From: an uncultured virus (IMG/VR IMGVR_UViG_3300047476_001538)
Lineage: Duplodnaviria; Heunggongvirae; Uroviricota; Caudoviricetes
Strand: one strand, 5' to 3'
Virus record (IMG/VR): IMGVR_UViG_3300047476_001538
Span: 11,772 to 75,771 of that record
DNA length: 64,000 nt
A program made the position numbers and the translations under genes. The notes under the pieces were generated by a model, which saw nothing but the letters and a program-made list of their open reading frames with translations, was not told the origin of the DNA and ran no database searches. Within the stretch, counting starts at the first letter, position 1. Every line of letters begins with the position of its first letter. Shown here piece by piece: positions 4,355 through 59,957 of this stretch.

Positions 4355-7300
4355 ATGAATATACAAGAATTGTCTACGTTTAGCCTTCGTGACTCATTGA
4401 AGTTTCACGACGAACTCAATCCTGCTCTATGGGACGAACACGAGCAGTTGAAGCCCGAAGTCAGAGAAAAGCTGCTTCAGATTGCAGAGGATTTTCAGGA
4501 ATACCTTGGAGTCGACAATCTGGATCTTAAGGATATTACGTTGTCTGGCTCAAATGCCGCCTTCAGCTATAACAAGCACAGTGACATTGATTTACATTTG
4601 GTGGTGGATATGCCAGACGATGAGGTATATCGTGAGTTATTTGATGCCAAAAAGTATGCCTATAACGATCAACATGATGTAAAAATAAAAGGATCGCCCG
4701 TTGAATTGTATGTTCAAGACGCCAACGAAGAGCATTATTCTCAGGGTATCTATTCTGTGATGAATGACGAATGGATTGATGTTCCAAAAAAACGCTCATT
4801 GGACGTTGATGATAGCAGCGTAAAAAACAAGTTTGAGGACGTTAAACGTCACATAACTGATGCCATCAATTCAGATGACTTTGATACGCTCTCTGGTGTT
4901 CACAAGCGTATCAAAGCAATGCGCCAATGTGGATTGGAAAAGAATGGTGAGTTTAGTATTGAAAATCTGACGTTCAAGATGCTCAGAAACGAGGGATGGA
5001 TTGAGAAATTGCTCAATGCCAGAAACAAAGCTAAAGACAAAATGCTCAGTCTTGCTGAAAAGAACAAGAAGAAGCAAAAAAGAATATATGGGTTTAGCAC
5101 ACCAGAATTACTACAATCTGACGTAACCAATACTTGGGACGGTGTGTCTGATAGCACTCAAGATTTTTTGAATGAAGACGTAACCAATACTTGGGACGGT
5201 GTATCGGATAGTACTCAACAATTTTTGAATGAGAAAGATTCTGAATCTCATAAAGAGGTAATCAAGGACTTCATTTTGTTTTGTAAGAAATACCTAAAGA
5301 TAGCCAAGTTACCGAAAGTAACACTAAAGAAGGATGCTAAGTGGTCATCTGAACACAAGACGTTTGGTTACTACAATCCAAATGACAATAGCCTGACAAT
5401 CAATCTGGCTGGCAGAAACATTGTTGATTCGTTAAGAACCATTGGTCACGAATTAGTGCATTGTAAGCAATTTGAATCAGTAGATATGCCAACCAATTCT
5501 GGCGAAACCGGCAGTGCAGCAGAAAATCATGCTAACAGTGTTGCTGGCATACTAATGAGAGAATACGGACAACTCCATCCAGAATTATTTCAAATGCCAG
5601 TATTAGCAGAAGCATCAGGGTACATTCCAACGGCGGCGCAAGCACATGATCCGAGATTTGAAATGGCATTGAGTTGTGATGTTCATCCTGGTACATTGGG
5701 CAGAGTGGCTAACGCATTTGATTTGAATACTGATTCACAAGGTAAACCACAGATTGCTAATCCTAATGGCCGAGTAGTCAGAGAAAACTGTATTGAAGAG
5801 CAAACATTGTTTGAATCGTGGCAAGATTTCAAGAGTCAAGAAGAATTGATCGAAATCTTCGATAAAGAGGTTGTCTATGATTCCGTCAAGGACATGATTG
5901 AAAAATTTCACAATCGTAACAAAGAGTATGTTTATTCGCCATTCACTGATGTGGTTCAATCTCCGGCAATGAAGAGTAATGATTTATTTGCAGTACGTGG
6001 CAGAAATAAAAAAGACAAATCAATGGAGTATCATTTGGTCAGCACTCGCCATGAAAACGGCAAGATAGGTGATAGTTCACAATGGAATAATGAGGCCCTA
6101 AAAGATGCTATGAAGTTCGTTATTGAGGACGCAACCAACTTTGTCAATAAAGGCTCTCGTATTAAATTAATGACTGATGATGCTGCGTTGTATGATCAGT
6201 ATCTTAGAATTGCTAATCTGATGACACAACGCATCAATAGAGAAAGGCAACATGGCGGAGAATTTCAAGTAATAGAGGCTGGAAAGACTAATTCAATCGA
6301 TGGTCAATATTTAGATACTATTTTGATCAGAGGAACACCAACGAAAAAAATGGAGTCGCTTCGGAATGACCAAACCAAAACCAGCTACATCCCCAACGAT
6401 ATCAATAAGCTAACCTTTGAATCGTTTGATCACTATCGCCGTTGGTGTCAATCTCCAAAAACCAATAGCAACAGAAATCCAATGTATCATCCTAATAGAT
6501 ACCAAGGTATTTTTATAGACAGTAAAGATTTGCGTGAGACAAACGATATATTCACGAAAAGAAAGCAACAAGGAAAGGAATTTTCAAATGAATTCCTATC
6601 ACTTGATGATCGTGAAAATGTTGCTTTAAAAGTAGGTAATAAGATTTCTGTATTATCGTGTATCGTTGCACCCACTGATAAAATTAGCAGAATTGAGCTA
6701 TCCGGTTTCGTTACTCCTAAAGAGATAGCAAATCTACTGCTATCAACCGATGATAAGATTGATGCCATTGAATTTACCGATGGCACACAATATCCTGAAA
6801 AAGCACAAGAAACTATTGTAGATAATATAAACCTTGTCAATACTGTATTCTTTCCAGACAAACACACAGCAGATTATGCTATGACCGCAACTGAATTACT
6901 GTTATGGGGAATGGAAGGAAAAGGGTGGAAAATTGAGCGATACATGAGTGAATCTGCTGATAATTTGGAAGAATCACTTTGGGAAGAACTTCAGAATCAC
7001 AAAAGTGGTGATAATGTCAACAACTTCCAAAAATGGTTTGGCAATAGTAAAGTGGTTGACGACAACGGCAATCCTCTCAGAGTTTATCATGGAACAGCCG
7101 GTGATTTCCCGTCTTTTAGTTCAAAATTTCAGGGTAAAACAACCGGTGCTACTAGCTCCAAATCAGGATTCTTTTTTACATCATCACCAACTACAGCAAA
7201 ATCTTATGCTGACTATGCAGCATTAAATGCAAAAGTGCAACAACTATTGGATCAAGCTGATGCTGCTGAAAAGAAAGGTGATTGGGATTTGTATGATGAA

Positions 7301-10237
7301 AAGATTCAACAGGCCGAAGAACTTGACGCCAGTTTTGGTGATCCAAAAAACAGAGCGCAAGGGCAATCTACTATTCCGGTATTCTTATCTATTCAGAACC
7401 CAATAATACTTGATGCTCAGGGTGAAAATCCATCTGGTATTGGTGGTATTGATCCGTTGATTAAAAAAGCTAAATCAAGAGGACATGATGGCGTGATTAT
7501 CAAAAATTTTGATGATTCTGCTGGACTTTTTAATGATGTATCCGATCATTACATTGTATTTAATGCGAATCAGATAAAGTCTGCCATTGGCAACAAAGGC
7601 TCTTACAATCCTGATAGCGATGAAATTGTAAACGAAAATCAGAATAATTTTAAATCATGGTTTTCTGGATCTAAGATAGTTAATCCGGATGGCACACCAA
7701 AGATAATGTATCACGGAACACACAAAGATTTTTCTTCTTTTGTTAAGACCGCCGGATCAAAAGCAATATTCGTATCAAGTGATCCTAAATTTGCGAAGGA
7801 TTATGCTATTGGAAGTGGTGGCAATATTCTTCCTGTGTACATTCGATCAGTAAAGCCATGGGATTATTTGGATGATTCAGATAATCAAGCACTCCAACAC
7901 TATTTGGGATTATCCGACGAGGATATAAAATGGTGGCAGGGATTTGATGAGGGAGAACTTTACATGGCAGCAGTTAGGGGAAAATGGGATGCCATTGAAT
8001 CAGACGAATTTCAGAAATTTCTCCAATCAAATGACTATGATGGATTTTATGTTATCGAAAATGACGCTAGAAATTTAGGAGTATTTAATGCAAATCAGAT
8101 AAAGTCTGCCATTGGCAACAAAGGCTCCTACAATCCTGATAGCGATGAAATCGTAGATGAAGCTATCTCCAAAACCGGCGAGTATGGAAAAGTAGTAAAA
8201 ATAGTCAAGCAATCTATCGTAGGAGCGGTTCAACAATTCCAGAAAAGATACCCTGAAATCAGAGAAAGTAATATGTCGTTGAAGGAGCATTATTCGGCAA
8301 TGCAACCATTGCTTGAACGAAGTTTGGGTGACAATTTCAATATGTACTTCGACACGCCTGTTAGATTTGAAGAACTAAGTCAAGGTCGTGGACAATATAA
8401 CAATGACGGAACTATCACGCTCAGTAGCGATTTTACAAAAACTTTGACTCGGACATTAGTGGATGCATTGTTTGATTGGTCGCCTGAACCAGCCAGCCAC
8501 GATGAGCGGTTAAACAAATACGTCGATATTAGCAAGTTCACCGAATACGAAGAGTTAGCACAAGACCTCTTTCAAACGAGACCTCATGCAATCAATGACC
8601 TCGTTGAAACATTTATTCACGAATATGTTCACGCCGAACAGCACAAAAGAATAGCTCAGAAGAATACTAAAACAGGCAAATTTATGCCCAATCAATACTA
8701 TTCGTATTTGCAGCGCAATCGGGCTTTATTTGCTAAAGCCGTTCAGAACTTAGAAACTGATGAAGATTGGCAAGCGTATCTATCTTCTCCTCAAGAGATA
8801 ACGGCACACGCGCATGATCTTGCTAATAAAATAATACAAGGTGCTCTGTTTGGACAACAGATTGATAATATCAGTCCGGAAGAGGCTGATATTTCCATGA
8901 AAATACTAAAGTCCACCTTGCAGCAGGCGGCTAACTACAATGTACTACCCAAATACCAACAATATGATATCTTTGACCGCAACAACAAGCAACATAGAAA
9001 AATCGTTAATAGATTCTTGAAGACAGTGTATCAAGAAGTAGCTGCCGCTATTCAAACGCTACAAAATAAAGTTCAATCTGGTAATTTATCAGAATCACTT
9101 GGTTCACCTTATCCATTGAATCAAGGATTAAATCTTGATAGTGTTGTATCATATACATGGAAAGATGAAAATAATCTTAAAGGTAGTATCGGATTCATGC
9201 GAGGTGGATATGACGAAGATTGGGAAATAACATTCAATGTAGGTGGAAAATTTAATATTACCAATAAAGGTGATGCATTCAGAATATTCGCCACGGCTAA
9301 GGATGCTGTTAAAAGATTTATGACCACGCCGCAAGGTAAAGGAGCAGATAGAGTTTACTTCTCTGCCAAAACATCTGAACCAACCAGAGTGAAGCTGTAT
9401 GATAAGTTAGCTCAAATGATGGTGAAGAATGGATTCAAATTGCATCATACTGAAATGGAAGGCAATCAGAAGTATTATTACCTTGATACGCCAAATCAAG
9501 GTAAAGAAGTAAAAGAATCACTTGATAATACACTGCTTGAAGTATTAAAGAATCCAGTAGATCACAATTCATTTAGTGATCTATCAGATATGGTCAACTC
9601 ACAAAATAAAGGAAAAGCGATGAGCGGTCATACTAATGTTATGGCGACTCCAGAAATGAGGAAAGAAAATACATACATTATCAGATTCATGGATAATGAT
9701 CGTAATATTCAATATCATATCTGCACACTTGGAATGGATGGTGGTCAACGAAAAAAAGCATCAGATGTAGATCCAAAAATAGGATTGGATGCGTTGAATA
9801 TTATCTTTCATGATGCTAAGTTTTATCTTGAAAAGAAGATGCCAGTGTTGATCATAGCCCCAGATAATAAACGTAAACACAGTTATCTGAAAATGGCAAC
9901 ATTGTTAAAAAATCAAGTAGACAGTTCATTAAACATAGAAGATGTTGGGATGATAACAGGCGTTGATGGAGCAAGAGGACTCGGTTTCAAAATTGTTGAA
10001 ACTCAGTATAACAAGCTGACTGGAATTGATCCATCATTGGCAGAAGCACAAACAGTGGCCAAAATGATGCCAGCGGTCAAGCTGTGGAAGGCACGGGTAA
10101 AAATCAAGCAACCAAACTACATCGGATACGTAGAAGCTCAAGTGACTGCACCGGATATGCGCACTGCTCGTAATATGCTCAAGGCGCTCTATAATGTTCC
10201 GGAGCATGAGGTTGGATCAGTGACGTTGGTCAAGTGA
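4355..10237 (+). CDS. ~1960-aa polyvalent protein, probably virion-internal: Pol-beta NTase, two zincin domains, two ART-PolyVal-like domains and several unknown modules
   Basis: SGS..SDIDLH; HELVH (5447) and HEYVH (8618); two copies of NF.xWF..SK.V...YHGT...FNANQIKSAIGN; late box upstream. Confidence 0.85.
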   Translation: MNIQELSTFSLRDSLKFHDELNPALWDEHEQLKPEVREKLLQIAEDFQEYLGVDNLDLKDITLSGSNAAFSYNKHSDIDLHLVVDMPDDEVYRELFDAKKYAYNDQHDVKIKGSPVELYVQDANEEHYSQGIYSVMNDEWIDVPKKRSLDVDDSSVKNKFEDVKRHITDAINSDDFDTLSGVHKRIKAMRQCGLEKNGEFSIENLTFKMLRNEGWIEKLLNARNKAKDKMLSLAEKNKKKQKRIYGFSTPELLQSDVTNTWDGVSDSTQDFLNEDVTNTWDGVSDSTQQFLNEKDSESHKEVIKDFILFCKKYLKIAKLPKVTLKKDAKWSSEHKTFGYYNPNDNSLTINLAGRNIVDSLRTIGHELVHCKQFESVDMPTNSGETGSAAENHANSVAGILMREYGQLHPELFQMPVLAEASGYIPTAAQAHDPRFEMALSCDVHPGTLGRVANAFDLNTDSQGKPQIANPNGRVVRENCIEEQTLFESWQDFKSQEELIEIFDKEVVYDSVKDMIEKFHNRNKEYVYSPFTDVVQSPAMKSNDLFAVRGRNKKDKSMEYHLVSTRHENGKIGDSSQWNNEALKDAMKFVIEDATNFVNKGSRIKLMTDDAALYDQYLRIANLMTQRINRERQHGGEFQVIEAGKTNSIDGQYLDTILIRGTPTKKMESLRNDQTKTSYIPNDINKLTFESFDHYRRWCQSPKTNSNRNPMYHPNRYQGIFIDSKDLRETNDIFTKRKQQGKEFSNEFLSLDDRENVALKVGNKISVLSCIVAPTDKISRIELSGFVTPKEIANLLLSTDDKIDAIEFTDGTQYPEKAQETIVDNINLVNTVFFPDKHTADYAMTATELLLWGMEGKGWKIERYMSESADNLEESLWEELQNHKSGDNVNNFQKWFGNSKVVDDNGNPLRVYHGTAGDFPSFSSKFQGKTTGATSSKSGFFFTSSPTTAKSYADYAALNAKVQQLLDQADAAEKKGDWDLYDEKIQQAEELDASFGDPKNRAQGQSTIPVFLSIQNPIILDAQGENPSGIGGIDPLIKKAKSRGHDGVIIKNFDDSAGLFNDVSDHYIVFNANQIKSAIGNKGSYNPDSDEIVNENQNNFKSWFSGSKIVNPDGTPKIMYHGTHKDFSSFVKTAGSKAIFVSSDPKFAKDYAIGSGGNILPVYIRSVKPWDYLDDSDNQALQHYLGLSDEDIKWWQGFDEGELYMAAVRGKWDAIESDEFQKFLQSNDYDGFYVIENDARNLGVFNANQIKSAIGNKGSYNPDSDEIVDEAISKTGEYGKVVKIVKQSIVGAVQQFQKRYPEIRESNMSLKEHYSAMQPLLERSLGDNFNMYFDTPVRFEELSQGRGQYNNDGTITLSSDFTKTLTRTLVDALFDWSPEPASHDERLNKYVDISKFTEYEELAQDLFQTRPHAINDLVETFIHEYVHAEQHKRIAQKNTKTGKFMPNQYYSYLQRNRALFAKAVQNLETDEDWQAYLSSPQEITAHAHDLANKIIQGALFGQQIDNISPEEADISMKILKSTLQQAANYNVLPKYQQYDIFDRNNKQHRKIVNRFLKTVYQEVAAAIQTLQNKVQSGNLSESLGSPYPLNQGLNLDSVVSYTWKDENNLKGSIGFMRGGYDEDWEITFNVGGKFNITNKGDAFRIFATAKDAVKRFMTTPQGKGADRVYFSAKTSEPTRVKLYDKLAQMMVKNGFKLHHTEMEGNQKYYYLDTPNQGKEVKESLDNTLLEVLKNPVDHNSFSDLSDMVNSQNKGKAMSGHTNVMATPEMRKENTYIIRFMDNDRNIQYHICTLGMDGGQRKKASDVDPKIGLDALNIIFHDAKFYLEKKMPVLIIAPDNKRKHSYLKMATLLKNQVDSSLNIEDVGMITGVDGARGLGFKIVETQYNKLTGIDPSLAEAQTVAKMMPAVKLWKARVKIKQPNYIGYVEAQVTAPDMRTARNMLKALYNVPEHEVGSVTLVK
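5120..5233 (+). repeat. In-frame 57-bp tandem duplication
   Basis: DVTNTWDGVSDSTQ(D/Q)FLNE twice. Confidence 0.95.
7556..8155 (+). repeat. 75-bp direct repeat (7556-7630, 8081-8155) ending each ART-like domain
   Basis: gtatttaatgc.aatcagataaagtctgccattggcaacaaaggctc.tacaatcctgatagcgatgaaat.gta, 3 mismatches. Confidence 0.95.
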
Positions 10238-15847: not shown

Positions 15848-16783
15848 ATGAAAATCAATGATATTATTAAAGAAGACGTATCGCAACAAGAGCTATCACA
15901 AATAGAAGTTTTTGCTAATAGATTATGGCATAAGTATGGCATAGATATTGCATTTACAAAGCACTTTTTAGATAGAGTAAACGACTCAAGAAATAAAAAA
16001 CCAATCTCAGCCGCAGAATTAGTTCGCCTATTCAAAAAAGAATACGAACGGAATGGCAAGAAAATAGCTTCGTTGGACAATGGCGAACAAGGCGTATTTA
16101 AAGACACCTCCACGGATATCAACATTCCATTTGCTGTGAGTGATCGGAATAACGATCACGAATTATTTGCAAAAACAATAATGCGAAAAAAGAACTTCGC
16201 ATCCTCAAGTCCAGTGTTTGCTGTAGAAGAAGATCCATGTTGGAAAGGCTACAAACAATATGGAACCAAGAAGAAGGGCAAGCGCACGGTTCCAAATTGC
16301 GTTCCCGTTAGCGAAGATTATGATGAATACAATGATGAAGCTGGAATGGCAGATAATAATCTTGAGACCATCAAGCGGGCCGCAGAAGGGTTAGATGACA
16401 TTATTGCCGGCGACAAAAATCTACCAGAGTGGTGTCAAGAAAAAATCGCAGTAGCCAAGTATATTTTAGTATCCGTTTGGGATTATATGCTCAGTGAAGA
16501 AAATCAAGAGATTGATGAAGATTGGCAAAAAACCAACAAAAAAGACAAAACTGATGGCATGAGCAAAAAAGCGGTAAATGCTTACAGAAGAGAAAATCCC
16601 GGTTCAAAATTAAAAACAGCGGTGACCACGAAGCCGAGCAAACTAAAGAAGGGTAGCAAAGATGCCAATAGAAGAAAAAGTTTTTGTGCTCGCTCAAATG
16701 GTCAAAGAAAACAGCATAACATAGATTGTTCTAAGACGCCGGACAAACCAATTTGTAAGGCGAGGAAACGGTGGAATTGTTAG
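15848..16783 (+). CDS. Modular protein with internal-protein-like leader; possible RelE/RegB-like N domain and DUF6321-like C domain
   Basis: MKINDIIKE; FTKHFLDRVND; CWKGY..VPNCVP; RRENPGSKLK..RRKSFCAR. Confidence 0.7.
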   Translation: MKINDIIKEDVSQQELSQIEVFANRLWHKYGIDIAFTKHFLDRVNDSRNKKPISAAELVRLFKKEYERNGKKIASLDNGEQGVFKDTSTDINIPFAVSDRNNDHELFAKTIMRKKNFASSSPVFAVEEDPCWKGYKQYGTKKKGKRTVPNCVPVSEDYDEYNDEAGMADNNLETIKRAAEGLDDIIAGDKNLPEWCQEKIAVAKYILVSVWDYMLSEENQEIDEDWQKTNKKDKTDGMSKKAVNAYRRENPGSKLKTAVTTKPSKLKKGSKDANRRKSFCARSNGQRKQHNIDCSKTPDKPICKARKRWNC

Positions 16784-16795: not shown

Positions 16796-17803
16796 ATGAG
16801 AGCAAAACAGTTTGTTTTTGAATCCAAGGAACAAGAGTGGCGATATATCTGGAATCTAAAAGATTCAGAATCCCTGACTACTGAAGAATGGTGCAGAGTA
16901 GTTGAACGACATCACTGCGGAACTCTGATTGAGAATGACGTGAGTGATAACACGAGAATATTTGAAATGCTCAAAGATTTCGGAGTGGCCAAGCCCGAGG
17001 TAGGCGAGCATTATATTCCAGTCACTGTTATGGCAGCGTCTAGCTTGATGATTTACGACATTGACGGGCGTTGTCCCCCAGAGAGTAAGCCTCGTCTGTT
17101 GGAGTTGGTGAAAATTAAAAACGGCGATTATTATTTTGACAACAACGGCAGAATTCAACGTTATCCACAAGAGTGGCAATCTAAGGTAATGGTAGCAGAG
17201 ACTCTGTGCATTCCAAACCTTGAACAGTACAGGGAAATGGTTACCATGCTGCGGTTGGCCACTGACTCGGATAAGTTCAATAACTTATTGACCGAATCCT
17301 TGACCAGTCCATATCCTCTGAAACTGGAATATGCTGATAGAAGCAAGATTGATTATTCGTTCAGAACTGATTCTGATGCCAAAGGCGATATTGAATTCTG
17401 GTCAAAAGGTCAAAATTCAGAATGGGAAATGGCCTTTACTATCGACGGCAAGGTTGAACACCAAAATAGAAATACGGGTGAGGTTTTCAGAATATTCGCC
17501 ACCGCCGCTAAAAGCGTTCAAATGTTCTTGAATACACCCGAAGGTTATAATATGTCCACTCTGAACATAGAGGCCAGTACTCACGAATTGTCAAGAGTTA
17601 AACTCTACGATAGAATGGTTCCTATACTATCTAAGCTGGGATTGAAGTTTGCCGGCACGGACAATGTCGGACAATACAAAAACTACCACTTTGTCAATCC
17701 TGATAATCCACCTCAAGCAATATCTGAACCCAATAAAAACTGGCGAGATAGTGCTGACTGGGAATTTATCGAAAATATCCGATCTGAACGGAGAAAACAA
17801 TGA
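16796..17803 (+). CDS. Modular protein with internal-protein-like leader and recurrent PYP/FRIF domain
   Basis: MRAKQFVFE; LTE-SLTSPYPL..GEVFRIFAT..SRVKLY. Confidence 0.8.
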   Translation: MRAKQFVFESKEQEWRYIWNLKDSESLTTEEWCRVVERHHCGTLIENDVSDNTRIFEMLKDFGVAKPEVGEHYIPVTVMAASSLMIYDIDGRCPPESKPRLLELVKIKNGDYYFDNNGRIQRYPQEWQSKVMVAETLCIPNLEQYREMVTMLRLATDSDKFNNLLTESLTSPYPLKLEYADRSKIDYSFRTDSDAKGDIEFWSKGQNSEWEMAFTIDGKVEHQNRNTGEVFRIFATAAKSVQMFLNTPEGYNMSTLNIEASTHELSRVKLYDRMVPILSKLGLKFAGTDNVGQYKNYHFVNPDNPPQAISEPNKNWRDSADWEFIENIRSERRKQ

Positions 17804-18018
17804 GAGCAAAAGAATTTATTACAGGTTTAACAGAAAATGCCAGCGTTGGTGGCACAAGTAGCGGCTCTGTGGCTGCCGTTAGTATGCCATTAGGTGGCAC
17901 TATTAGCAGAGGCGGATCATTATTGTCAGGTCAGTCCACCGATGAAGAATTTCCAAATACTCCTGAGCATATTCGCAAAATGGCCAAGCAATGGAAGTCA
18001 AGTAACAAGAACAAATAA
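17800..18018 (+). CDS. Small protein with internal-protein-like leader
   Basis: MRAKEFITGLTE followed by an Ala/Ser/Gly-rich segment. Confidence 0.7.
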   Translation: MRAKEFITGLTENASVGGTSSGSVAAVSMPLGGTISRGGSLLSGQSTDEEFPNTPEHIRKMAKQWKSSNKNK

Positions 18019-18493: not shown

Positions 18494-19765
18494 ATGTACG
18501 ATCCACTAATGAATGACATTCTCGCCAAGCTCAATTCAGTTGAATCTGCTGCTTCAAAAAGAAACAACACACCCAATCAACATTCTGGTAACGAAATGTT
18601 GGATATTCTAAAAAGGTTTGATTTGGCAGAATCCGGTAATAGCAAACTCACGCCTGTCAATGTCAAGCATGGACTGAATAAACAACAAAAAGCAGTTGGA
18701 CAAGTAGGACCAGAGTTCAAGCCGAAGACGACTAAGGTGCTTACTGCGCCAACTGACCCAAAAAATCCGTTCGCTGGTAAGTTAGTCGGCGGAAGTGAAT
18801 CTCGGCGCAATACCAAGCCAATGATTGACGAGGCAGAAGTATCAGAAGATTTATTATCAGATATCAAGAAGAGTCTATCGGATTATATAAAGCAAATTGA
18901 TAGCATTGAGAAAAAAGACACGGACCTGAAAAAGAAGGACAACCGAGATACCGACCTAAAAAAGAAAGACAAACGAGACAGAGATTTTATTGTTCGGAAG
19001 GTAAAAGAAGACCCCACTCAGGAAAATCCGATTATTCAACCTAAGCCGGCCTCATTGGTCAATCCAACTGTTGCTGATACCGGTGCCAATCAGACTCCCA
19101 CCGTAGATACTGATTCTTCAAAAGGTGTTCAACCAGTTGGCGAGACGCTAAACGATCCTTACAAAGTAGTATTGCGTGAGAACAGTTCTAGGTTTGTGTC
19201 ATTCGTTGGGCATACCGACACAGGCGCAGAAATAGATGTTTACTTTACGAAACACGAAGACGATGACGAATATAACACATGGGAAGTGGAATTTGGTGTA
19301 AATGGGTCGTTTAACATCACTAACAAGGGCGACGCCTTTAGAGTGTTTTCCACTGTTTCGTATGCATTACAAACGTTTCTCGGTATGCGTCAAGGTCTAA
19401 AGGCAGATCGTATTTATTTTACAGCAAAAGAACCATCAAGAATCAAGCTATATCAGCGTCTTTCTAAAATGATCGTTGATTACGGGTTCAAGCGTGTACC
19501 ACTATCTGAGCCGTGGAAGTTTCTATTTGATCTTAATGAAGATGGCAGTAGTCAAGATAGATCATTTACCGCTGAATCAATCAAATCTCACGAATGCAAC
19601 GGCAAGGTATTTGAAATCGTAGAGGGTGAGCATGGTGGATTTCATATTCGCCACAATAATAAATTATCACCATCTAAATTCAAGACATTTTTAGAGGCTG
19701 ATACCGCACTTCAATTATTCACGCATCGTTTATCCACTACCGGTGATTATAGAGAAGAACAATGA
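18494..19765 (+). CDS. Modular probable virion protein with PYP/FRVF domain
   Basis: VGE-TLNDPY..FNITNKGDAFRVFST..EPSRIKLY, shared with the polyprotein. Confidence 0.75.
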   Translation: MYDPLMNDILAKLNSVESAASKRNNTPNQHSGNEMLDILKRFDLAESGNSKLTPVNVKHGLNKQQKAVGQVGPEFKPKTTKVLTAPTDPKNPFAGKLVGGSESRRNTKPMIDEAEVSEDLLSDIKKSLSDYIKQIDSIEKKDTDLKKKDNRDTDLKKKDKRDRDFIVRKVKEDPTQENPIIQPKPASLVNPTVADTGANQTPTVDTDSSKGVQPVGETLNDPYKVVLRENSSRFVSFVGHTDTGAEIDVYFTKHEDDDEYNTWEVEFGVNGSFNITNKGDAFRVFSTVSYALQTFLGMRQGLKADRIYFTAKEPSRIKLYQRLSKMIVDYGFKRVPLSEPWKFLFDLNEDGSSQDRSFTAESIKSHECNGKVFEIVEGEHGGFHIRHNNKLSPSKFKTFLEADTALQLFTHRLSTTGDYREEQ

Positions 19766-20241
19766 GAGCACATGAGTTCATAACGCCAGAATCAGATAAT
19801 TTAGTATGGTTCCACATAGAGGGAAAACCGGCTATTGGTATCATAAAAAAGAAATTCGGCAAGGTAATTCGTGAATGCGGTGGTGTATTAAATGTTCCCG
19901 GCAAATACTGGACCCTTATTCAGAATTTAGCTTATACTGCTGGCGGATTGGCTGAACTCACTGATATGCCAAAGAAATGCGCCAAAAAAACTAAAGTCAA
20001 GTATAATGATAATACTGTAAACATAAATACTGCTACGAAAACAATCACATTTGAATCATTGGATGATGAGGATGATTTGGAAGAAGAGGAACAAGAAAAT
20101 GTTCTTACTCCACAATTTGATTTAGCAACTGATAAAATCAATGATGCTGGCGCTGGAGTGCAAGCTCATACTCAAATAGATAATTACGTGCAAAGTGCAT
20201 CTGCTACCCAAAAGCCCATTAAGAATGTACCATCACCATAG
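19762..20241 (+). CDS. Hypothetical protein with internal-protein-like leader
   Basis: MRAHEFITPE. Confidence 0.7.
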   Translation: MRAHEFITPESDNLVWFHIEGKPAIGIIKKKFGKVIRECGGVLNVPGKYWTLIQNLAYTAGGLAELTDMPKKCAKKTKVKYNDNTVNINTATKTITFESLDDEDDLEEEEQENVLTPQFDLATDKINDAGAGVQAHTQIDNYVQSASATQKPIKNVPSP

Positions 20242-36697: not shown

Positions 36698-37160
36698 AAT
36701 AATATTGGATCAAGTGAGCAACACTGCTCTATTTGAGATGGCATTCAAAAAACGAGAGGTCAGAGACAAGTTTGTCAATCAAAGCTATCAAATCGCAGAA
36801 CATTTAGTGAAAATCTTAGCATATGATGATCCGCAAAATTACAATCATTGGTGCGCCGAGATCAACGCTTTCCTAAAACCTCTTTGGGCTCTTCGTTGGG
36901 ATGGTAAAAAATTACTGAGTAAAGAAGAGATAATGAAATGCTTGTGGAAAAGTTTTTTAGAAAACGGAGAATACGATATTCAAGGAATAATCAAGAGTCT
37001 TGATATGATTGATGGTTATGCTGCCCCAAGAAATATTCGCACCACTTCGCAAATAAACTCTACCTTGATAAACATATACACCAAGTTAAGTGACTTATTA
37101 TCACGAGGCAAAAGAACGCCAATTCAAACTATACTACAAGAATTAGGCGTGAATTTATGA
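36684..37160 (+). CDS. DUF29-like helical protein, paralog 2
   Basis: Leader nearly identical in DNA to paralog 1; EHLVK..NHW..EI. Confidence 0.7.
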   Translation: MRIFEIILDQVSNTALFEMAFKKREVRDKFVNQSYQIAEHLVKILAYDDPQNYNHWCAEINAFLKPLWALRWDGKKLLSKEEIMKCLWKSFLENGEYDIQGIIKSLDMIDGYAAPRNIRTTSQINSTLINIYTKLSDLLSRGKRTPIQTILQELGVNL

Positions 37161-37642
37161 GAATTTCCGAAGTTATCCTTGACAAATTAAACGAAACTGC
37201 TCTATTTGAGATGGCTTTTGATAGGAAAGAAGCCATAAAAAAGTTTCAGAATCTTGACTACCAGATTCAAAGACATCTTATTAAAATAACAGCGTTCAAA
37301 GATGGGTTAAATTACCAACATCATTGTGGAGAAATCAACGGTTGGTTAGATCATCTAAATGATGTAAAATGGAACAGAACTCAATATCTTAGCAAATATA
37401 TCATCATGAAATGCTTATGGGAGGGTCCATTGGGTCATGGTGCTATTGCTGTTGAAGATGGCGTGAAAACTCTGATCAGAGTACATCGGTACAGTGTGCC
37501 GCGAAACGACTTATCCATTCACAGAATATATGAACTGCTATTCAAAATTTACGATGAAATGTCATTTGATTTGAGTAATGGAAACGTAAACAACATTCAG
37601 CATTACTTGACAAAAAACGGCTATTACGTACAGAATCCCTGA
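37157..37642 (+). CDS. DUF29-like helical protein, paralog 3
   Basis: MRISEVI..LFE-MAF; RHLIK..HH..EI. Confidence 0.7.
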   Translation: MRISEVILDKLNETALFEMAFDRKEAIKKFQNLDYQIQRHLIKITAFKDGLNYQHHCGEINGWLDHLNDVKWNRTQYLSKYIIMKCLWEGPLGHGAIAVEDGVKTLIRVHRYSVPRNDLSIHRIYELLFKIYDEMSFDLSNGNVNNIQHYLTKNGYYVQNP

Positions 37643-39262: not shown

Positions 39263-39679
39263 ATGAAACTATTCTTAGATTGCGAATTTAATGAGTTCAA
39301 AGGTGAATTGATATCTATGGCTCTGGTGGCCGAAGATGGTCAAGAGTTCTACGAGGTGTTAGCTTGTCCTTCTCCTGGTCCCTGGGTCAAGGAACACGTT
39401 ATTCCTATTTTAAATAGAAACCCAGTAACTTTTGACATATTCCAATGGTTGTTGCAGGAATTTCTAATGCGATTTGATAGAATTCATATCGTTGCTGATT
39501 GGCCAGAAGACATCAAACACTTTTGCGATTCACTGATAACTGGACCAGGTGTGCGATTGAATACTCCGCCTCTGACAATGTCAATTCATCGTTTTGATGC
39601 TGAATCAACTCTGCCACATAATGCACTACACGATGCCAGAGGCATTATGGAATATTGGTTAAACAACAAGTACAACTAG
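39263..39679 (+). CDS. DEDDh 3'-5' exoribonuclease (RNase AS-like)
   Basis: FLDCEF, WVKEHV.P, HNALHDA. Confidence 0.8.
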   Translation: MKLFLDCEFNEFKGELISMALVAEDGQEFYEVLACPSPGPWVKEHVIPILNRNPVTFDIFQWLLQEFLMRFDRIHIVADWPEDIKHFCDSLITGPGVRLNTPPLTMSIHRFDAESTLPHNALHDARGIMEYWLNNKYN

Positions 39680-40245
39680 CGGTAGCCAATCTTCATGAAT
39701 CTGTCGTAAGGATTGCCCTCAACGTCTTTTACTTCAAGCTCGCCCACAAATAGTGTCTTAGATAGCGGATACTCATTATTAAAATCAGTTAGTGTTTCTA
39801 TTCCATTAGACCGTTCTTGATGATTCTTGCCTTGTAATGCTACAACGGTGCCCGCTGGAATATTCTCAAGCCACTTTGAGCCGAGAATGTCGTTGGTAGA
39901 TGAATTAATGATAAGAATATTATCGCCTTGAAATTCAATGTCATTGGCATCTTTGCAAACAGAAACAATATCAGAATAACCTTTTTTCTTGACAAGAGAA
40001 TCAAAATAAGTTATCTTGCGTTGATTATTATCAACACAGATTATTGTATCAAAGGTAATGTCAAACTGATTTATTACAATAGCTGTAGCACCATACCATG
40101 AACCAAGTACATAAATATTATCAAACTCATTGAGACCCATTGTAACTAGGGTCTGGCTTAGCCACATTTTGGAAATCAATAGATCACGCGATACGGAGCC
40201 TTTAGGGGTATCTGGTGATGATTCAATAATATCTTTAATTTTCAT
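39676..40245 (-). CDS. Class I SAM-dependent methyltransferase-like protein with internal-protein-like leader
   Basis: MKIKDIIE; VLGSWYG, CVD, INSS, RFMKIG. Confidence 0.7.
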   Translation of the reverse strand: MKIKDIIESSPDTPKGSVSRDLLISKMWLSQTLVTMGLNEFDNIYVLGSWYGATAIVINQFDITFDTIICVDNNQRKITYFDSLVKKKGYSDIVSVCKDANDIEFQGDNILIINSSTNDILGSKWLENIPAGTVVALQGKNHQERSNGIETLTDFNNEYPLSKTLFVGELEVKDVEGNPYDRFMKIGYR

Positions 40246-41354: not shown

Positions 41355-42050
41355 ATGAATTTTTCCTTCGCATTCGATGTTGACGGCACTTTGACGTTAA
41401 GTCGTCAAAAAATTGATTCGGATTTTGCAGAGTGGTTTCTCAATTGGGTCAAGAAGCATAAGGTATACATTGTTACTGGCAGTGATTATGAAAAAACTGT
41501 AGAACAATTGGGACAAGAGATATGTGATTCGGTGGCTGGTATCTTCAATTGTTCTGGTAATGCTTTTTATATAAAGGGCGAATTACAATCATCCAATGAA
41601 TTTAAGCTAAACGACAGCCAAATGGAGATATTAAATCGTTATTTGTCTAAGAGTCCATTTCCTCTGAGAACCGGAAATCACTTTGAACAACGACAAGGAA
41701 TGTGTAATTTTAGCGTGGTTGGAAGAAATGCCACCATAGAAGAGCGGCAACAATATTCTGATTATGATGGTCGGGTTGCGGAACGTCAGCGTATTGTTAC
41801 TCAATTTAAGCATTGTTTTCCTGAGTTGGACGCAGTTCTTGGTGGTGATATTAGTATTGATATTTTTCCGAAGGGCAATGATAAGAGTCAAGTTGCTGAA
41901 AAATTGAAGCCATTTGTTTATTTTGGTGATCGTGTATTTCCGGGTGGAAATGATTACACTATTGCTAAGGAAGCAGAGGCTCATTATAACGTGAAAGATT
42001 GGCAAGAAACTCGGAGGATTATAGAATTGTATTACAATGAGAGCATATGA
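41355..42050 (+). CDS. Eukaryotic-type phosphomannomutase (HAD-IIB)
   Basis: FDVDGTLT, TGSD, NFS.VGR, GGDISIDIFPKG.DK, FGD..GGND. Confidence 0.9.
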   Translation: MNFSFAFDVDGTLTLSRQKIDSDFAEWFLNWVKKHKVYIVTGSDYEKTVEQLGQEICDSVAGIFNCSGNAFYIKGELQSSNEFKLNDSQMEILNRYLSKSPFPLRTGNHFEQRQGMCNFSVVGRNATIEERQQYSDYDGRVAERQRIVTQFKHCFPELDAVLGGDISIDIFPKGNDKSQVAEKLKPFVYFGDRVFPGGNDYTIAKEAEAHYNVKDWQETRRIIELYYNESI

Positions 42051-42570
42051 ATTTCTCAATGAGGTTTTAAATTCCGATGTACCCACAACAACCGATGATG
42101 ATTTAAGAAAATCAATTATTCAAACGTATGGTAAGAATATCATCTCTGGGCATACTTCTGTTTGGCAATCTGAAATAATGAAAAAAACCGGCGTGTGGGT
42201 TGTGAAAATAATGGATCGCTCTCGGCAGATTCAATATCATATTATGTCAGATGATGTTGAAGCAGGAGATGTAAAAACCGCAGATCAAATTGATTCCAAA
42301 ATAGGATTAGATTGTATGAACATTATTGCCAAGGATGCCTTGAGTTCCTTGAAAAACGGATATCCTGTGATTATTCTTGCACCAACCGAAGATAAAATAA
42401 TGTCATATAGTCAAATGGCAAAAATGCTATTGAGGTCAAAGAAAAGCGAGTTTAAACTGACCGAGCCATTTACTACATTGGGACTTGATAATATCCAAAG
42501 ATGGGGCATTAAGATTTTTGAAAACTATATTCCTAAATTGTCTGATGTGAAGTATGCACAGAAAAGATAA
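42037..42570 (+). CDS. Protein with internal-protein-like leader; stand-alone copy of a polyprotein module
   Basis: MRAYEFLNE; IQYHI..KIGLD..NII..DA..PV.I.AP. Confidence 0.8.
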   Translation: MRAYEFLNEVLNSDVPTTTDDDLRKSIIQTYGKNIISGHTSVWQSEIMKKTGVWVVKIMDRSRQIQYHIMSDDVEAGDVKTADQIDSKIGLDCMNIIAKDALSSLKNGYPVIILAPTEDKIMSYSQMAKMLLRSKKSEFKLTEPFTTLGLDNIQRWGIKIFENYIPKLSDVKYAQKR

Positions 42571-42578
42571 ATACAGTA

Positions 42579-43217
42579 ATGAGAGCGCATGAATTTATAA
42601 ATGAACGTGAGGAACCCATCAGTATTGGACCAAAAGGCAAACAAATGGTCGAATACGATGGTCTTGTATTACAAATAAAAGATGATGGTGTTACCGTTAC
42701 CGTCCATGCTTATCCATCTATAGATGATGCTCAAAATTATAAAAACACAATGGCGTATGTAGTATTTGATCGTGATCATAATACCTTAATTGCCGATGAT
42801 CTTGCAGTATATGATCCATACAAAGGACAAGGCGTTGCGAAAAAAATGTATGATTATATTAAATCCCTTGGATTTCGCATTTTAGCTAGCGATGATCAAA
42901 CAGCGGCTGGAAAGCATTTTTGGGAGAAGAATAAAGGCAACGACGGGATTTGGGAATCAGAAGAAGAAATCATCAACGAGCTAACTTTTTTTGGCAGTCA
43001 ATGTACTAAGGACTGCTCCGGACATCGCTCTGGCTACCTTTGGTCTCGTCGCAAAAATGCTCAACAGGTTCCACAATCACATAGTCCATCATTTAATAAA
43101 GGTGCTGCGATTGGTATTCAACATATGCGCCAAGGTAGGAACCCAATCGGGGCAAGCGGTATCCGTGGTCAACGTGGTCGCTACAGAAAATTCATTCCGG
43201 GAAAAACAGACGAATAA
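42579..43217 (+). CDS. GNAT acetyltransferase-like domain plus Cys motif, with internal-protein-like leader
   Basis: MRAHEFINE; YKGQGVAKKMY..QTAAGKHFW; INE-L..CTKDCSGH; GATAAATA at 42566. Confidence 0.75.
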   Translation: MRAHEFINEREEPISIGPKGKQMVEYDGLVLQIKDDGVTVTVHAYPSIDDAQNYKNTMAYVVFDRDHNTLIADDLAVYDPYKGQGVAKKMYDYIKSLGFRILASDDQTAAGKHFWEKNKGNDGIWESEEEIINELTFFGSQCTKDCSGHRSGYLWSRRKNAQQVPQSHSPSFNKGAAIGIQHMRQGRNPIGASGIRGQRGRYRKFIPGKTDE

Positions 43218-49552: not shown

Positions 49553-50092
49553 ATGAGAGCAAAGGAACTGTTTGAAAAGTTGAATCATTACAACGACGGC
49601 ACAAGAACTTTGTTTGAAAGCATTGCTGTACCAGAAGTCAATCAAGCTCTTATAGATTGGAACAAACATCAACACAACGGAGTGTTGATAGGCGGTTGTG
49701 CTCTTAGCTTTTACGTCAGACCAAGGACTACAATGGACGTTGATGTTCTTTTTTTAACAGACGATTCGATACCAAAAGAAGTCAGTGGTTTTAAAAGAAC
49801 AAGACCTTCTGCATTTCAACATAACAAAACACATGTTGGGATTGAACTCGTCACTTCACTGTTGATAGGAATATCACAAGAATTAACTCAAAAAGTTTTT
49901 GATACTGCGATGATCTCCGACAATGTTAAAATCGCAAGTCCATCCGCTCTTGTTGCATTGAAGCTACATAGATTTAATCGCCAAGATCAAGCTGACATAG
50001 AAGAATTGATGAATCATTATACCATCGATTTACAAGATTGGCCACTGTCCGAAAAGGCCAAGGCGCATTACGAAAAAGTACTGACTTGGTAA
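49553..50092 (+). CDS. AbiEii/MenT-like nucleotidyltransferase with internal-protein-like leader
   Basis: MRAKELFE..LFE; IGG.A....RPR.T.DVD; LVALK..R.QD..D. Confidence 0.8.
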   Translation: MRAKELFEKLNHYNDGTRTLFESIAVPEVNQALIDWNKHQHNGVLIGGCALSFYVRPRTTMDVDVLFLTDDSIPKEVSGFKRTRPSAFQHNKTHVGIELVTSLLIGISQELTQKVFDTAMISDNVKIASPSALVALKLHRFNRQDQADIEELMNHYTIDLQDWPLSEKAKAHYEKVLTW

Positions 50093-50168: not shown

Positions 50169-50768
50169 ATGAAAATTTCAGAAATAATTACCAATCCGCC
50201 CAGAGATGAATATATTGATCAATATCAGTATCATTTTTCCGATTGCCCAACCGTTGCTACCATTAAAAATTTACAGCTAAAAAAATGCGAATCACAGGAT
50301 GAAATTGAATATGGTCTGATTGATTCCAAGGACCATATAGTAGGCTATTTTTCATTAGATCGGTACGATGACGACATTTGGTCAGTTAATTTAGTTCAAT
50401 TAGCACAGGCATACAAAGGAATGGGATATGGAACATTCTTTTATGATTATGCTATCATGAACGATAAGCTAAAAATTTTATCGGATGCAACAAACACTGA
50501 AGGACAATTTGGCTCAAGAGCATTATGGGAAAGGCTAAAAAATAATCGTCGCTACGAGATAGTAGGATATGATACAAACACTGATTCAGTCATTCCTAAT
50601 GCCACTTCTGAAATGATTCATAATAATAAACCAAATACAAGATGGTTAGCCATTCCTCCATCAGAGACCATAAACGAATCAATTCAACGAATTCAGTCTC
50701 ACATGAAAAAGAGATATGTGGTGTGGTATGGTCCAGGTACCACATCTGAGACCTATTTTAATTACTGA
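50169..50768 (+). CDS. GNAT-like protein with internal-protein-like leader
   Basis: MKISEII; YKGMGYG..Y..SD..T..SRALW. Confidence 0.7.
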   Translation: MKISEIITNPPRDEYIDQYQYHFSDCPTVATIKNLQLKKCESQDEIEYGLIDSKDHIVGYFSLDRYDDDIWSVNLVQLAQAYKGMGYGTFFYDYAIMNDKLKILSDATNTEGQFGSRALWERLKNNRRYEIVGYDTNTDSVIPNATSEMIHNNKPNTRWLAIPPSETINESIQRIQSHMKKRYVVWYGPGTTSETYFNY

Positions 50769-52453: not shown

Positions 52454-52609
52454 ATGAACAACGAATTATCACTAAAAGAAAAGATTATCATAGCAAACAG
52501 CATGGTGACACGTCTTAAAAAACTGAATAAGTTATTTGAAAAGTACGAAAATAAGAATAAAAATGAAAATCACAGAGATAGTAATATCAGACGAACTAAA
52601 GATATTTGA
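52454..52609 (+). CDS. Small hypothetical protein
   Basis: GAGG RBS; TATAAATA upstream. Confidence 0.45.
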   Translation: MNNELSLKEKIIIANSMVTRLKKLNKLFEKYENKNKNENHRDSNIRRTKDI

Positions 52610-52838
52610 GTACATCAAAGATCAGCAGATTGCTAGTGAGATATACGCTCTTTACCATAGCCTTGGTCGAGTAACAGATAATTTTATATACGAGCACTAC
52701 GAGGTATTCGCTCACAGCGACGTATTCGATACATTAAACGACCTTGATCACTTAACTCGTGAAGCAGCAAATATATTTGATCCAAACGATCAGGTGATGG
52801 AAGTGCTGAGATTTCTAACAGACTATTTTGAACGATAA
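52563..52838 (+). CDS. Hypothetical protein with internal-protein-like leader
   Basis: MKITEIVIS..IFE. Confidence 0.65.
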   Translation: MKITEIVISDELKIFEYIKDQQIASEIYALYHSLGRVTDNFIYEHYEVFAHSDVFDTLNDLDHLTREAANIFDPNDQVMEVLRFLTDYFER

Positions 52839-53011: not shown

Positions 53012-53233
53012 ATGACACCATCAATAGAAAAAATAAAAGAAATGTTAGCTACAAATGGACTATATCCCAAAGCAGGAAAGTCGGATGAAGAAATAATTGA
53101 TGCAGCAAAAAAGATAATCCAATGGACTTTAGGAATGCAAGTGATGCAAAATAAGCGAGAATTGAATGAAAATAAAAGAAATAATCGTGAGTTGGTTGGC
53201 TGGATCAAACTTGATGGAGATGGCGTATCGTAG
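53012..53233 (+). CDS. Hypothetical protein
   Basis: ATAAATA and AAGG upstream. Confidence 0.55.
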   Translation: MTPSIEKIKEMLATNGLYPKAGKSDEEIIDAAKKIIQWTLGMQVMQNKRELNENKRNNRELVGWIKLDGDGVS

Positions 53234-53633
53234 GAACGAAATTGAATCCAAAATTACTGCATTAAGTGATCCAATCACAGATCATCTTATTAAAATTCTG
53301 AAATGGAATGATCCAGTAAACTACAAAAAACACTGCAACGATATTGACAAATGGTTATTTAAAATACAATCATTCAAACTAAAACAAAATCGTAGACCAT
53401 CGCAATCAGATTATTTTCAATGGATGTTTACTGATGTCGCAGAAAATGAAGTAACTGTTAAGAGATTTATTCGCGGATTACATGAATATCATCATTTACC
53501 CATTATTCGTGACGACATTGAGGTATATGATATCCTTAAAGCAATATTTTATCAGTTAAGTTATGATTTGCATCTAAATAGATTTGAAACTATCTTAGAT
53601 TATCTACCAAAACATGAACAAATTTCAAATTGA
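53166..53633 (+). CDS. DUF29-like helical protein, paralog 4
   Basis: MKIKEII..LME-MAY; DHLIKIL..NY.KH..DI. Confidence 0.7.
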   Translation: MKIKEIIVSWLAGSNLMEMAYRRNEIESKITALSDPITDHLIKILKWNDPVNYKKHCNDIDKWLFKIQSFKLKQNRRPSQSDYFQWMFTDVAENEVTVKRFIRGLHEYHHLPIIRDDIEVYDILKAIFYQLSYDLHLNRFETILDYLPKHEQISN

Positions 53634-53796: not shown

Positions 53797-53963
53797 TGTT
53801 ACTGAGTCTATGAAGGAGTACAAGGATGTACGACGACCCCTCAAACGCATATTCGGCGAGTCATTGCGTAGCAGGACGTTTTGGGGCTAATGGGTGATTA
53901 TCCCCGCTGTTTCTCAGATAAAAAACACTTGACTTCTTGGTCAGGTAATGATATAAATAAAGT

Positions 53964-58171: not shown

Positions 58172-58176
58172 TCATT

Positions 58177-58844: not shown

Positions 58845-59126
58845 ATGTCAGAAAATCAAATAATCAGAGCCAGCCATATTTTGGTTGATACAGCTAAACA
58901 AGCTGAAGCGATTAAAGAAAAATTGGCAGCGGGCCAAGATTTTGCTGCATTGGCGCGAACAAGTAGTTTATGCCCAAGTAAGGCGAATGGTGGTGATTTG
59001 GGTCAATTTGGACCTGGTCGTATGGTTAAGCCATTTGAAGATGCAGTATTCAAATTGAAAGTGGGTGATATTAGCGAACCGATTCCAACAGGGTTTGGTT
59101 ATCATATTGTCCTTAGAACAGAATGA
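58845..59126 (+). CDS. ppiC: Parvulin peptidyl-prolyl isomerase
   Basis: ASHILV, S.CPS..GGDLG.F..G.MV.PF, GYHI. Confidence 0.93.
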
Positions 59127-59132
59127 AAATCG

Positions 59133-59432
59133 TTGATATTATTAGAAAAAGTGATGCTTGAAAAAGTAATAAAGCCCAAAATAGAGCAAGATGGAGTATT
59201 ATACGAATCTATCATAGATGTTCCAGAAATCATGAAATTTTCTCAAGATACAGAAATTCTATTAAAACGTGCTGAACAAGCAAGAATAAAAGGAGAAAAA
59301 TTATATTCTGGGTTGCCTCTTACAATTGACGACATAGGAAACAATGAATTGTATAATATGTATGTTAAGTTAGGAGATTATAAAAAAGCAAAACTAGAAT
59401 ATGATCGGTTAAATGGAGAAAATCATGACTAA
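59133..59432 (+). CDS. Hypothetical protein (start uncertain)
   Basis: ORF in operon context. Confidence 0.55.
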   Translation: MILLEKVMLEKVIKPKIEQDGVLYESIIDVPEIMKFSQDTEILLKRAEQARIKGEKLYSGLPLTIDDIGNNELYNMYVKLGDYKKAKLEYDRLNGENHD

Positions 59433-59577
59433 ATTAACAGATGTATTGAAAGCTGCATTGGTTCAGAAAGAAAGCAAGTCAGCACCAAAGGCTAAAAAAT
59501 CTTCCGAAGAGAAGGTAAAAGATAAATCAGTAATTAGCACCAAACCTGTTAAAAAAGCGGCTGGTCGTGGTCGTTGA
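59425..59577 (+). CDS. 50-aa Lys-rich protein (not in ORF track)
   Basis: GGAG RBS; ends KPVKKAAGRGR. Confidence 0.6.
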   Translation: MTKLTDVLKAALVQKESKSAPKAKKSSEEKVKDKSVISTKPVKKAAGRGR

Positions 59578-59957
59578 TGAAGTTTGAAGATTATCGTTCA
59601 ATGGTCTTAACTGAATCATTGAACGATCAAATCAACGAGATGGCTCGAATTGGGCCACAACACCATGGTATTCCTAATGTAGTAATATATGCTGGTGAAA
59701 CAAATAAGCGGCATGGATTGCGAGTAAAGATTTCAAAATTCAAGAACAAATGGGTAAAAGGCGATGAAAATAATTTCATCATTCAAATGCCCAGTCTTGA
59801 TTATGATCCACAAGATGTCCCGCGTTGGATTGATAAAAACACCATGGCGAAAATTTTAGGTTGGATTAAATTGAATCAACAGCAATTATATGATTTTGAA
59901 ATTGGTAAAATAATGTATGCCGATGATTTTTATGCTAAAATCTCAAAGTATTCATAA
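59577..59957 (+). CDS. Hypothetical protein with E-cleavage-like leader
   Basis: LTE..INE-MARIG; RHG.RVK; WIKLN. Confidence 0.65.
   Translation: MKFEDYRSMVLTESLNDQINEMARIGPQHHGIPNVVIYAGETNKRHGLRVKISKFKNKWVKGDENNFIIQMPSLDYDPQDVPRWIDKNTMAKILGWIKLNQQQLYDFEIGKIMYADDFYAKISKYS

Follow-up and report, generated by a model that had tools for sequence, protein, structure and literature searches.

The window analysed here, a 64 kb stretch (64,000 nucleotides, positions 11,772 to 75,771) of the IMG/VR record IMGVR_UViG_3300047476_001538 from an uncultured member of the Caudoviricetes, contains some 15 unrelated genes whose products begin with the same short leader peptide. This peptide resembles the capsid-targeting sequence (CTS) by which the internal proteins of bacteriophage T4 are brought into the phage head. 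The reading which best accounts for the evidence, and which we hold with reasonable though not complete confidence, is that the leader is a T4-type capsid-targeting and cleavage tag, borne by an enlarged and modular cargo set in a clade of uncultured jumbo phages. With a T4-like tag on about 15 unrelated genes, the phage probably delivers an extensive and rapidly changing set of enzymes to its host along with its DNA.

By analogy with T4, the tagged proteins would be synthesised in the infected cell and bound through their tags to the scaffolding core as the prohead assembles, after which a prohead protease of the S77 (gp21) type would cleave behind the Glu that ends the tag. The same protease would also cut at hydrophobic-x-Glu sites between the modules of multi-module proteins, such that the released enzymes would stay inside the head and pass into the next host together with the DNA. 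The full record is 75,771 bp long and is rated 21% complete by CheckV, which implies a genome of ca 360 kb, that is, a jumbo phage. In what follows, genes are named by their start positions in the window; the coordinates, lengths and N-termini of all the tagged genes are collected in Table 1.

A shared leader in the contig and in its clade

The leader was defined by the motif M-[KR]-[IA]-x-[EDQ]-[FILV] and sought in all six reading frames of the 75,771-bp contig, over its whole length, as well as in our own set of 132 gene calls. Seventeen matches occur in the six frames, 15 of which start open reading frames (ORFs) of 72–335 aa; the remaining two are an ambiguous ORF of 141 aa at 30265, absent from the original prediction, and a mini-ORF of 12 aa at 59123. 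Among the called genes the motif heads 16 of 132, where 0.09–0.24 would be expected (binomial P about 2e-24), and it follows none of 441 internal Met residues. The proposal that unrelated ORFs share a leader is therefore confirmed, and its frequency is not that of chance. The membership is somewhat smaller than the ‘about 17’ genes first put forward: 15 members are clear, while 30265 is doubtful and may be one of the approximately two chance matches estimated for six frames. Two further genes which had been included more loosely do not belong. The MNIQEL start of 4355 is the conserved beginning of a nucleotidyltransferase (NTase) module, seen as MDINEL, MNIHEL and MNLKEL in orthologues of the giant protein, and the sister-strain homologue of 59577 begins MVTEELRKY.

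Within the contig the tag takes the form MRAxEF(I/L)xE or MKIx(E/D)I(I/V)xE, together with shorter and longer variants. At tag positions 5–7 the first and third codon bases vary, while the acidic-hydrophobic-hydrophobic succession of residues is kept, and the DNA upstream of the tagged genes shows no conservation among them. Selection thus acts on the peptide. The claim that an (I/L/V/F)-x-E triplet soon follows the leader is borne out in part: a hydrophobic-x-Glu, with its Glu at positions 7–13, is found in 9 of the 16 tagged genes against 20 of the 116 others (17%; p = 0.0015). The longer variants are instructive with respect to the end of the tag, since the 12-residue form of 17800, MRAKEFITGLTE/NASVGG, stands against MRAQEFIKE/NASVGA in its homologue on a related contig (L076), such that both forms would yield the same predicted mature start (here and below, a slash marks the boundary in question).

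The relationships of the phage are indicated by its DNA polymerase (20866–23520), a family B enzyme of the T4 gp43 type. The best matches among cultured phages are those of Sinorhizobium phage Phosso and Agrobacterium phage Atu_ph07 at 45–48% identity, with Rak2-like jumbo phages at ca 42%; five large uncultured IMG/VR contigs (246–525 kb, three of the five rated 98–100% complete) are nearer at 57–61%. The 43 kb around the Atu_ph07 polymerase hold no match to the leader.

Across the uncultured clade the tag is sharper than it is in the window. A scan of IMG/VR with a DNA pattern for MRAxEFI, in which residue 9 lay outside the pattern, matched at least 120 stretches, many of them with two to four copies. 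Among the matches listed, 141 of 155 lie at ORF starts, and Glu is found at position 9 in 131 of 139 unique proteins (codons GAA 106, GAG 25), with no conservation among these 139 from residue 10 onward. The clade tag is, in other words, the 9-mer M-R-A-x-E-F-I-x-E. Once the tag is removed, the same proteins fall into at least 36 BLAST clusters, one of which is a family of ca 125 aa with 75 members and 27 of which are singletons. Pfam matches for 40 tagged representatives comprise GH19 (four), SLT, phage lysozyme, LysM, ADP-ribosyltransferase, GNAT, ParB_N and DUF6321. The MKI form is by itself a weak marker, since only 70% of matches to MKIxEII lie at ORF starts and 33% of those have Glu at position 9; either form may nevertheless occur within the same families, as is the case for MKIYEIIAE and MRASEFISE on one small family. 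Two abundant tagged families of ca 125 aa have no relative by tblastn among 50,697 cultured phage records, and a literature search for the leader strings found no paper containing them.

Comparison with T4, module junctions and the prohead protease

The CTS carried by internal proteins of T4 was reportedly described by Mullaney and Black in 1996 as a sequence which is removed by the prohead protease gp21. The original prediction had taken MKTYQEFIAE as its standard of comparison, and this is borne out by the T4 record, where IPII and IPIII begin with exactly this sequence and IPI begins MKTFKEFTSTTTPVSTITE. The first 10 residues of IPIII are sufficient for incorporation into the T4 head; targeting depends on residues 4 and 7 and processing on residues 8 and 10, Asp at position 10 blocks cutting while targeting is kept, and gp21 cleaves after L/I-X-E (PMC9026906). 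The clade consensus fits these functional residues, F6, I7 and E9 aligning with T4 F7 (targeting) and with I8 and E10 (processing), and Ile taking the place of Phe in the MKI class. By the T4 result, the three window proteins with Asp at position 9 (36239, 36684 and 37157) would be loaded and left untrimmed at that position.

The likeness to T4 is thus one of a tag of about 10 residues at the N-terminus of unrelated proteins, with a basic residue 2, an E-F-I-x-E core and an L/I-x-E end, in a clade whose large members tested encode an S77 protease, where a gp22-like scaffold is likely, and in which the cargo genes differ between strains while the tag is kept. The differences are those of length and scale. 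The clade tag has nine residues and that of T4 ten, where T4 has three or four there are ca 15 tagged genes within 64 kb here and at least 36 families across the clade, and much of the cargo is enzymatic in appearance, with the same cleavage rule joining the modules of multi-module proteins.

This last feature was put to an unbiased test. The mature part (residue 10 onward) of every tagged protein in the fetched DNA was aligned inside longer ORFs, and duplicates were collapsed, which left 73 internal junctions. The residue immediately before the aligned module is Glu in 57 of the 73, and hydrophobic-x-Glu, the gp21 rule, stands at the exact aligned position in 48; elsewhere between offsets -8 and +8, no position has Glu more than 18 times or hydrophobic-x-Glu more than nine times. 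The junction logo has acidic residues at P6 and P5, L/V/I at P3, D/N/E at P2 and Glu at P1. The protease-site junctions that had been proposed are accordingly upheld. Individual cases illustrate the exchange of modules between fused and free-standing forms: EEIINE/LTFFGSQC within 42579 corresponds to a stand-alone gene, MRAYEFITE/LTFFGSQC, in strain L004; QEIDE/DWQKTNKK within 15848 corresponds to MRAREFINE/DWQKTNKK in L092; and NTLLE/VLKNPVDH in the giant protein encoded by 4355 corresponds to MRAYEFLNE/VLNSDVP of 42037. Likewise, a ‘PY’ module is preceded by NLSE in the giant protein, by LLTE in 16796 and by MKISEIVKPLTE in 35619. This reappearance of the tag's end within proteins favours a cleavage site and disfavours a feature that is purely N-terminal or that acts at the level of RNA.

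A protease of the appropriate type is encoded by the relatives. A Peptidase_S77 (gp21) homologue is present in all five large leader-bearing contigs that were tested, and also in two other jumbo contigs with homologues of the window NTase. In one complete genome (G005) it lies at 224562–225188 within a block of head genes, which, judging from size, order and N-termini, are likely to encode the portal, a gp67/68-like core protein (MNKFEQLIE...), the scaffold and the major capsid protein. In the last of these the [LI]xE sites number four, none of them beyond residue 42, and in the scaffold their density is 4.7 per 100 aa as compared to a genome background of 0.86, a distribution that fits a protease of T4-like specificity.

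Some support from virions comes by way of a cyanophage. Among cultured phages, 489 records, mainly those of T4-like cyanophages, contain homologues of the DUF6321 module of 15848. One of them is ORF137 of S-CREM2 (108049–109521), which ends in this module behind SSMNE/DWQKANRK, the module being 71% identical to residues 222–311 of 15848. ORF137 appears in the Table 3 proteome of CsCl-purified S-CREM2 virions (PMC10665884). A homologue in phage S-P4 was annotated as a structural protein by its depositors. The supplements of Sullivan et al. 2010 contain no entry for T4-GC119. The data on S-CREM2 and S-P4 are weak but independent evidence for the carriage of such modules by T4-like particles. The parallel with 15848 lies in the C-terminal DUF6321 module behind a Met-Asn-Glu junction in a protein detected in purified virions; the differences are that ORF137 starts MSDQNFKDY, without the MRAxEFIxE leader, and that its detection is weak.

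Two other systems invite comparison. In phiKZ, 201phi2-1 and SPN3US, as is predicted for the clade, a giant head contains numerous proteins which a gp21-related protease cuts after Glu and which are ejected into the host (gp175/gp245; PMC5694885, PMC10052503). The ejection and inner-body proteins of these phages differ in that their propeptides often exceed 100 residues, with no single shared short tag, and the phages themselves stand outside the T4 core-gene lineage. The second comparison is with the polyvalent proteins of phages and conjugative elements, for which self-processing is said to have been proposed by Iyer et al. in 2017. The product of 4355 resembles the proteins of this type, which are predicted to enter the host with DNA, in its length of 1960 aa (4355–10237) and its combination of ART-PolyVal, NTase and zincin modules (Iyer, Burroughs, Anand, de Souza, Aravind 2017, PMC5512222). 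Two stretches of it match ART-PolyVal in Pfam (E = 3.5e-39), with weak matches to NTP_transf_2 and to the zincin family DUF6782. The original prediction had listed ADP-ribosyltransferases and zincins among the leader-bearing cargo; the domains are indeed present, but they are located in this giant protein, which has no canonical leader and only junction sites. Where it differs from the published type is that its junctions carry the prohead-protease rule and that its modules are interchangeable with leader-tagged single genes, which together point to processing by the head protease, instead of or besides the protein's own peptidases. The pattern [EDQ][FILV][FILV]xE occurs at four sites in the giant protein against a rough estimate of 1.7 by chance, a count which is not in itself significant because two pairs of the sites are duplicates.

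Counter-evidence and rival explanations

The core of the proposal, which is to say a T4-like leader, junction sites and a packaged cargo set, survives every computational test that was run, although packaging, cleavage and injection in this phage are what we infer. Several considerations weigh against it. With respect to the tag itself, the canonical 9-mer is found in only 4 of the 16 tagged genes of the contig, three have Asp at position 9, and a nearby hydrophobic-x-Glu is missing in four or five. The N-terminus of the NTase family belongs, moreover, to a longer stretch that is specific to the family and is conserved in more than 100 homologues. The giant protein and 18494 have junction sites without a leader, and would therefore need another route of entry. 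The 75.8-kb fragment contains no head genes, S77 protease or gp22-like scaffold, its gene content being that of replication and of nucleotide and sugar metabolism, such that the link to the protease rests on the relatives. In the S-CREM2 proteome, the values for ORF137 are 4 and 4.1, read as peptide count and percent coverage, which is a weak detection.

No enrichment of late boxes is seen upstream of tagged genes in the contig or in the clade, the consensus used being that of T4, which may not be that of the clade. The statement that several of the genes sit behind late boxes is not supported, since there are only two exact copies of TATAAATA on the + strand and only 1 of the 16 leader genes lies within 150 nt of one. 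Shine-Dalgarno motifs are found ahead of 4 of the 16 tagged genes against 75 of the 116 others (Fisher p = 0.005), a depletion that is not seen in the wider clade set of tagged genes. Finally, two clade proteins (L031:2992-3609 and L133:413-1294; MRAVEFIAE/IDRRGFLGALGAG...) carry a twin-arginine (Tat) signal right after the tag.

A cut at Glu9 in these two proteins would leave the Tat signal at the new N-terminus.

Of the rival explanations, the one that survives best, while still being unlikely, is that the hydrophobic-x-Glu sites are those of cytoplasmic polyproteins, cut by zincin modules or by some other protease, with the leader serving as a docking or cleavage handle and nothing being packaged. 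There are zincin-like modules in the giant protein, stand-alone zincin modules are common among the tagged proteins, and the self-processing reportedly proposed for polyvalent proteins would be of this kind. Against this, a stand-alone enzyme gains nothing from a cleavable nine-residue leader unless that leader targets it; the sites follow the rule of the S77 prohead protease, an enzyme encoded by all the large relatives tested; the tag fits the T4 CTS both at its targeting residue and at its cleavage residues; and a homologous module is present in the virions of S-CREM2.

Somewhat less probable again is that the tag is a recognition sequence for some other phage enzyme or machine, such as a radical-SAM maturase, a chaperone, a translocase or the apparatus that reads a degradation signal. 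In this regard, the clade is unusually rich for phages in matches to Radical_SAM (PF04055), with 16 in G005, 15 in G006, 11 in G007 and 4 in G009, and two of the tagged proteins continue into the Tat signal described above. What closes the conserved part of the tag, however, is a protease site found again at internal junctions, and the tag shows no pattern of Cys, Ser or Thr such as maturase substrates typically have. The radical-SAM version is disfavoured rather than dismissed, because the 75.8-kb contig combines 16 tagged genes with zero radical-SAM genes even though complete clade genomes have 11–16. Most improbable of all is that the shared start reflects a translation-initiation or RNA constraint, or shared ancestry or recombination of the 5' ends of genes, with no protein signal: the scarcity of Shine-Dalgarno motifs and the commonness of MKI starts in AT-rich genomes, of which the figures for MKIxEII are a reminder, speak for it, but codons vary with residue class kept and upstream DNA unconserved, fusion points within proteins show the C-terminal half of the tag again, and 36 unrelated families are tagged.

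The capsid-targeting and cleavage tag therefore remains the preferred reading, and it can be extended, more tentatively and at rather less than even confidence, to the whole of the cargo. The tagged genes and the polyvalent proteins may share one pool of interchangeable modules, for which the prohead protease would be a universal decoder, such that the head would load and release any module that is placed behind MRAxEFIxE or behind an internal hydrophobic-x-Glu linker. Modules could then fuse, split and swap between strains without losing their delivery, and cargo with a Tat signal would, once injected, be passed on to the next host's periplasm.

If the targeting reading is correct, then the delivery of proteins from the capsid is no longer a curiosity of T4, with its three small internal proteins and Alt, but a large, modular and fast-evolving weapon system of environmental jumbo phages. 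The nine-residue tag would then offer a simple sequence rule by which candidate injected effectors can be listed from metagenomes, as well as a testable and portable tag with which foreign proteins could be packaged in phage heads. The reading also ties the idea of the polyvalent protein to a concrete processing enzyme.

Cargo genes, strain turnover and neighbouring features

Searches of Pfam and PHROGs give no function for most of the cargo, and the enzyme identities that had been suggested stand to varying degrees. An NTase is confirmed in 49553, which matches DUF6036 (E = 2.6e-5) and is AbiEii-like; a 99% identical copy of this gene is found on a 126-kb contig. A class I methyltransferase dependent on S-adenosylmethionine (SAM) is supported at the level of the fold for 40245(-), the model of which (predicted local distance difference test score, pLDDT, 84) matches TehB, NodS, O-methyltransferases and others with a Foldseek probability of 1.0 and template modelling (TM) scores of 0.5–0.66; LGSWYG, a Gly-rich motif I, is conserved, and the Pfam match to GidB has only E = 0.025. 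The GNAT matches of 42579 and 50169 fall under the Pfam cut-off. In the two AlphaFold models, those of 40245(-) and 53166, the leader is modelled with low confidence and outside the fold (residues 1–12 in the case of 40245(-)).

The four helical-bundle paralogues (36239, 36684, 37157 and 53166) had been likened to DUF29, for which there is no Pfam match up to E = 5; Foldseek gives nothing below E = 1, and the best VIA match (3fcn_A, Z 6.4, root mean square deviation 3.4, 110 residues aligned) is at noise level for helical bundles. Relatives of these proteins turned up in Campylobacter T4-like phages. In one such phage, vB_CjeM_WX1 (L285, 3001–3951), two homologues lie side by side, beginning MIIKETISS... 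and MTFKEFILE..., and the second start resembles the T4 CTS.

The cargo turns over between strains. The cassette at 42556–43213, which here encodes a 212-aa GNAT-like and Cys-rich protein, is replaced in strain L004 (L004:1716-2020) by one encoding an 84-aa Cys-rich protein, between flanks that are 98.5–98.8% identical. Such swapping recalls the internal-protein loci of the T-even phages, which are variable between strains (PMC3012670). Sister contigs L002 and L004 have further tagged genes, and one that is truncated. On L002, an extra ORF of 30 codons (8237–8329) that starts MRAHEFIRE lies between the homologues of 18494 and 19762, and is probably a decayed cargo gene.

Table 1. Tagged genes of the window and related features, with sequence boundaries shown by a slash
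Coordinates	Strand	Length	N-terminus	Leader match	Remarks
4355..10237	+	1960 aa		none canonical	Polyvalent giant protein; NTase, two ART-PolyVal domains, zincin-like modules; hydrophobic-x-Glu junction sites FLNE274, FLNE293, IVNE1094, IVDE1269, LSE1580, LLE1729
15848..16783	+	311 aa	MKINDIIKE	clear	Canonical 9-mer ending I-K-E; internal junction QEIDE/DWQK (codon 16517-16519), then C-terminal DUF6321 module
16796..17803	+	335 aa	MRAKQFVFE	clear	9-mer ending V-F-E; internal junction NLLTE/SLTSPYP (17294-17296), then PY module common to giant protein
17800..18018	+	72 aa	MRAKEFITGLTE/NASVGG	clear	12-residue variant; small Gly/Ser-rich family
18494..19765	+	423 aa		none	C-terminal PY module behind QPVGE/TLNDPYK (19142-19144)
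19762..20241	+	159 aa	MRAHEFITPE	clear	No hydrophobic-x-Glu site after leader
30265..30690	+	141 aa	MRAGDFHNM	doubtful	Alternative start upstream at 30217; no Glu site
35619..36206	+	195 aa	MKISEIVKPLTE/AINNPYP	clear	12-residue variant directly ahead of PY module
36239..36697	+	152 aa	MKIFEIILDQ	clear	Asp at position 9; helical-bundle paralogue
36684..37160	+	158 aa	MRIFEIILDQ	clear	Asp at position 9; helical-bundle paralogue
37157..37642	+	161 aa	MRISEVILDK	clear	Asp at position 9, LNE at 11-13; helical-bundle paralogue
39676..40245	-	189 aa	MKIKDIIE/SSPD	clear	8-residue variant; class I SAM-methyltransferase fold
42037..42570	+	177 aa	MRAYEFLNE/VLNSDVP	clear	Canonical; paralogue of giant-protein module after NTLLE/VLKNPVDH
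42579..43217	+	212 aa	MRAHEFINE	clear	Canonical; weak GNAT match; internal junction EEIINE/LTFFGSQC (42978-42980), then Cys-rich module
49553..50092	+	179 aa	MRAKELFE	clear	8-residue variant; DUF6036/AbiEii-like nucleotidyltransferase
50169..50768	+	199 aa	MKISEIITNPPRDE	clear	Weak GNAT match; no hydrophobic-x-Glu nearby
52563..52838	+	91 aa	MKITEIVISDE	clear
53166..53633	+	155 aa	MKIKEIIVSW	clear	Helical-bundle paralogue
59123..59161	+	12 codons		mini-ORF	Leader-like remnant or chance match

A late kinase had also been named as probable cargo. The gene meant may be the ORF behind the box at 53952, and this is a transposase (phrog_506, E = 2.6e-107). The ORF in question, of 449 aa at 53964–55313 directly behind an exact TATAAATA box, resembles a mobile element within the phage genome. 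Upstream of the window, at about -11694 to -5037 in window coordinates, lie at least eight tandem paralogues that start MIEY(T/I/K)VKV..NG...WYLNGK, each of which has a near-identical ribosome-binding region.

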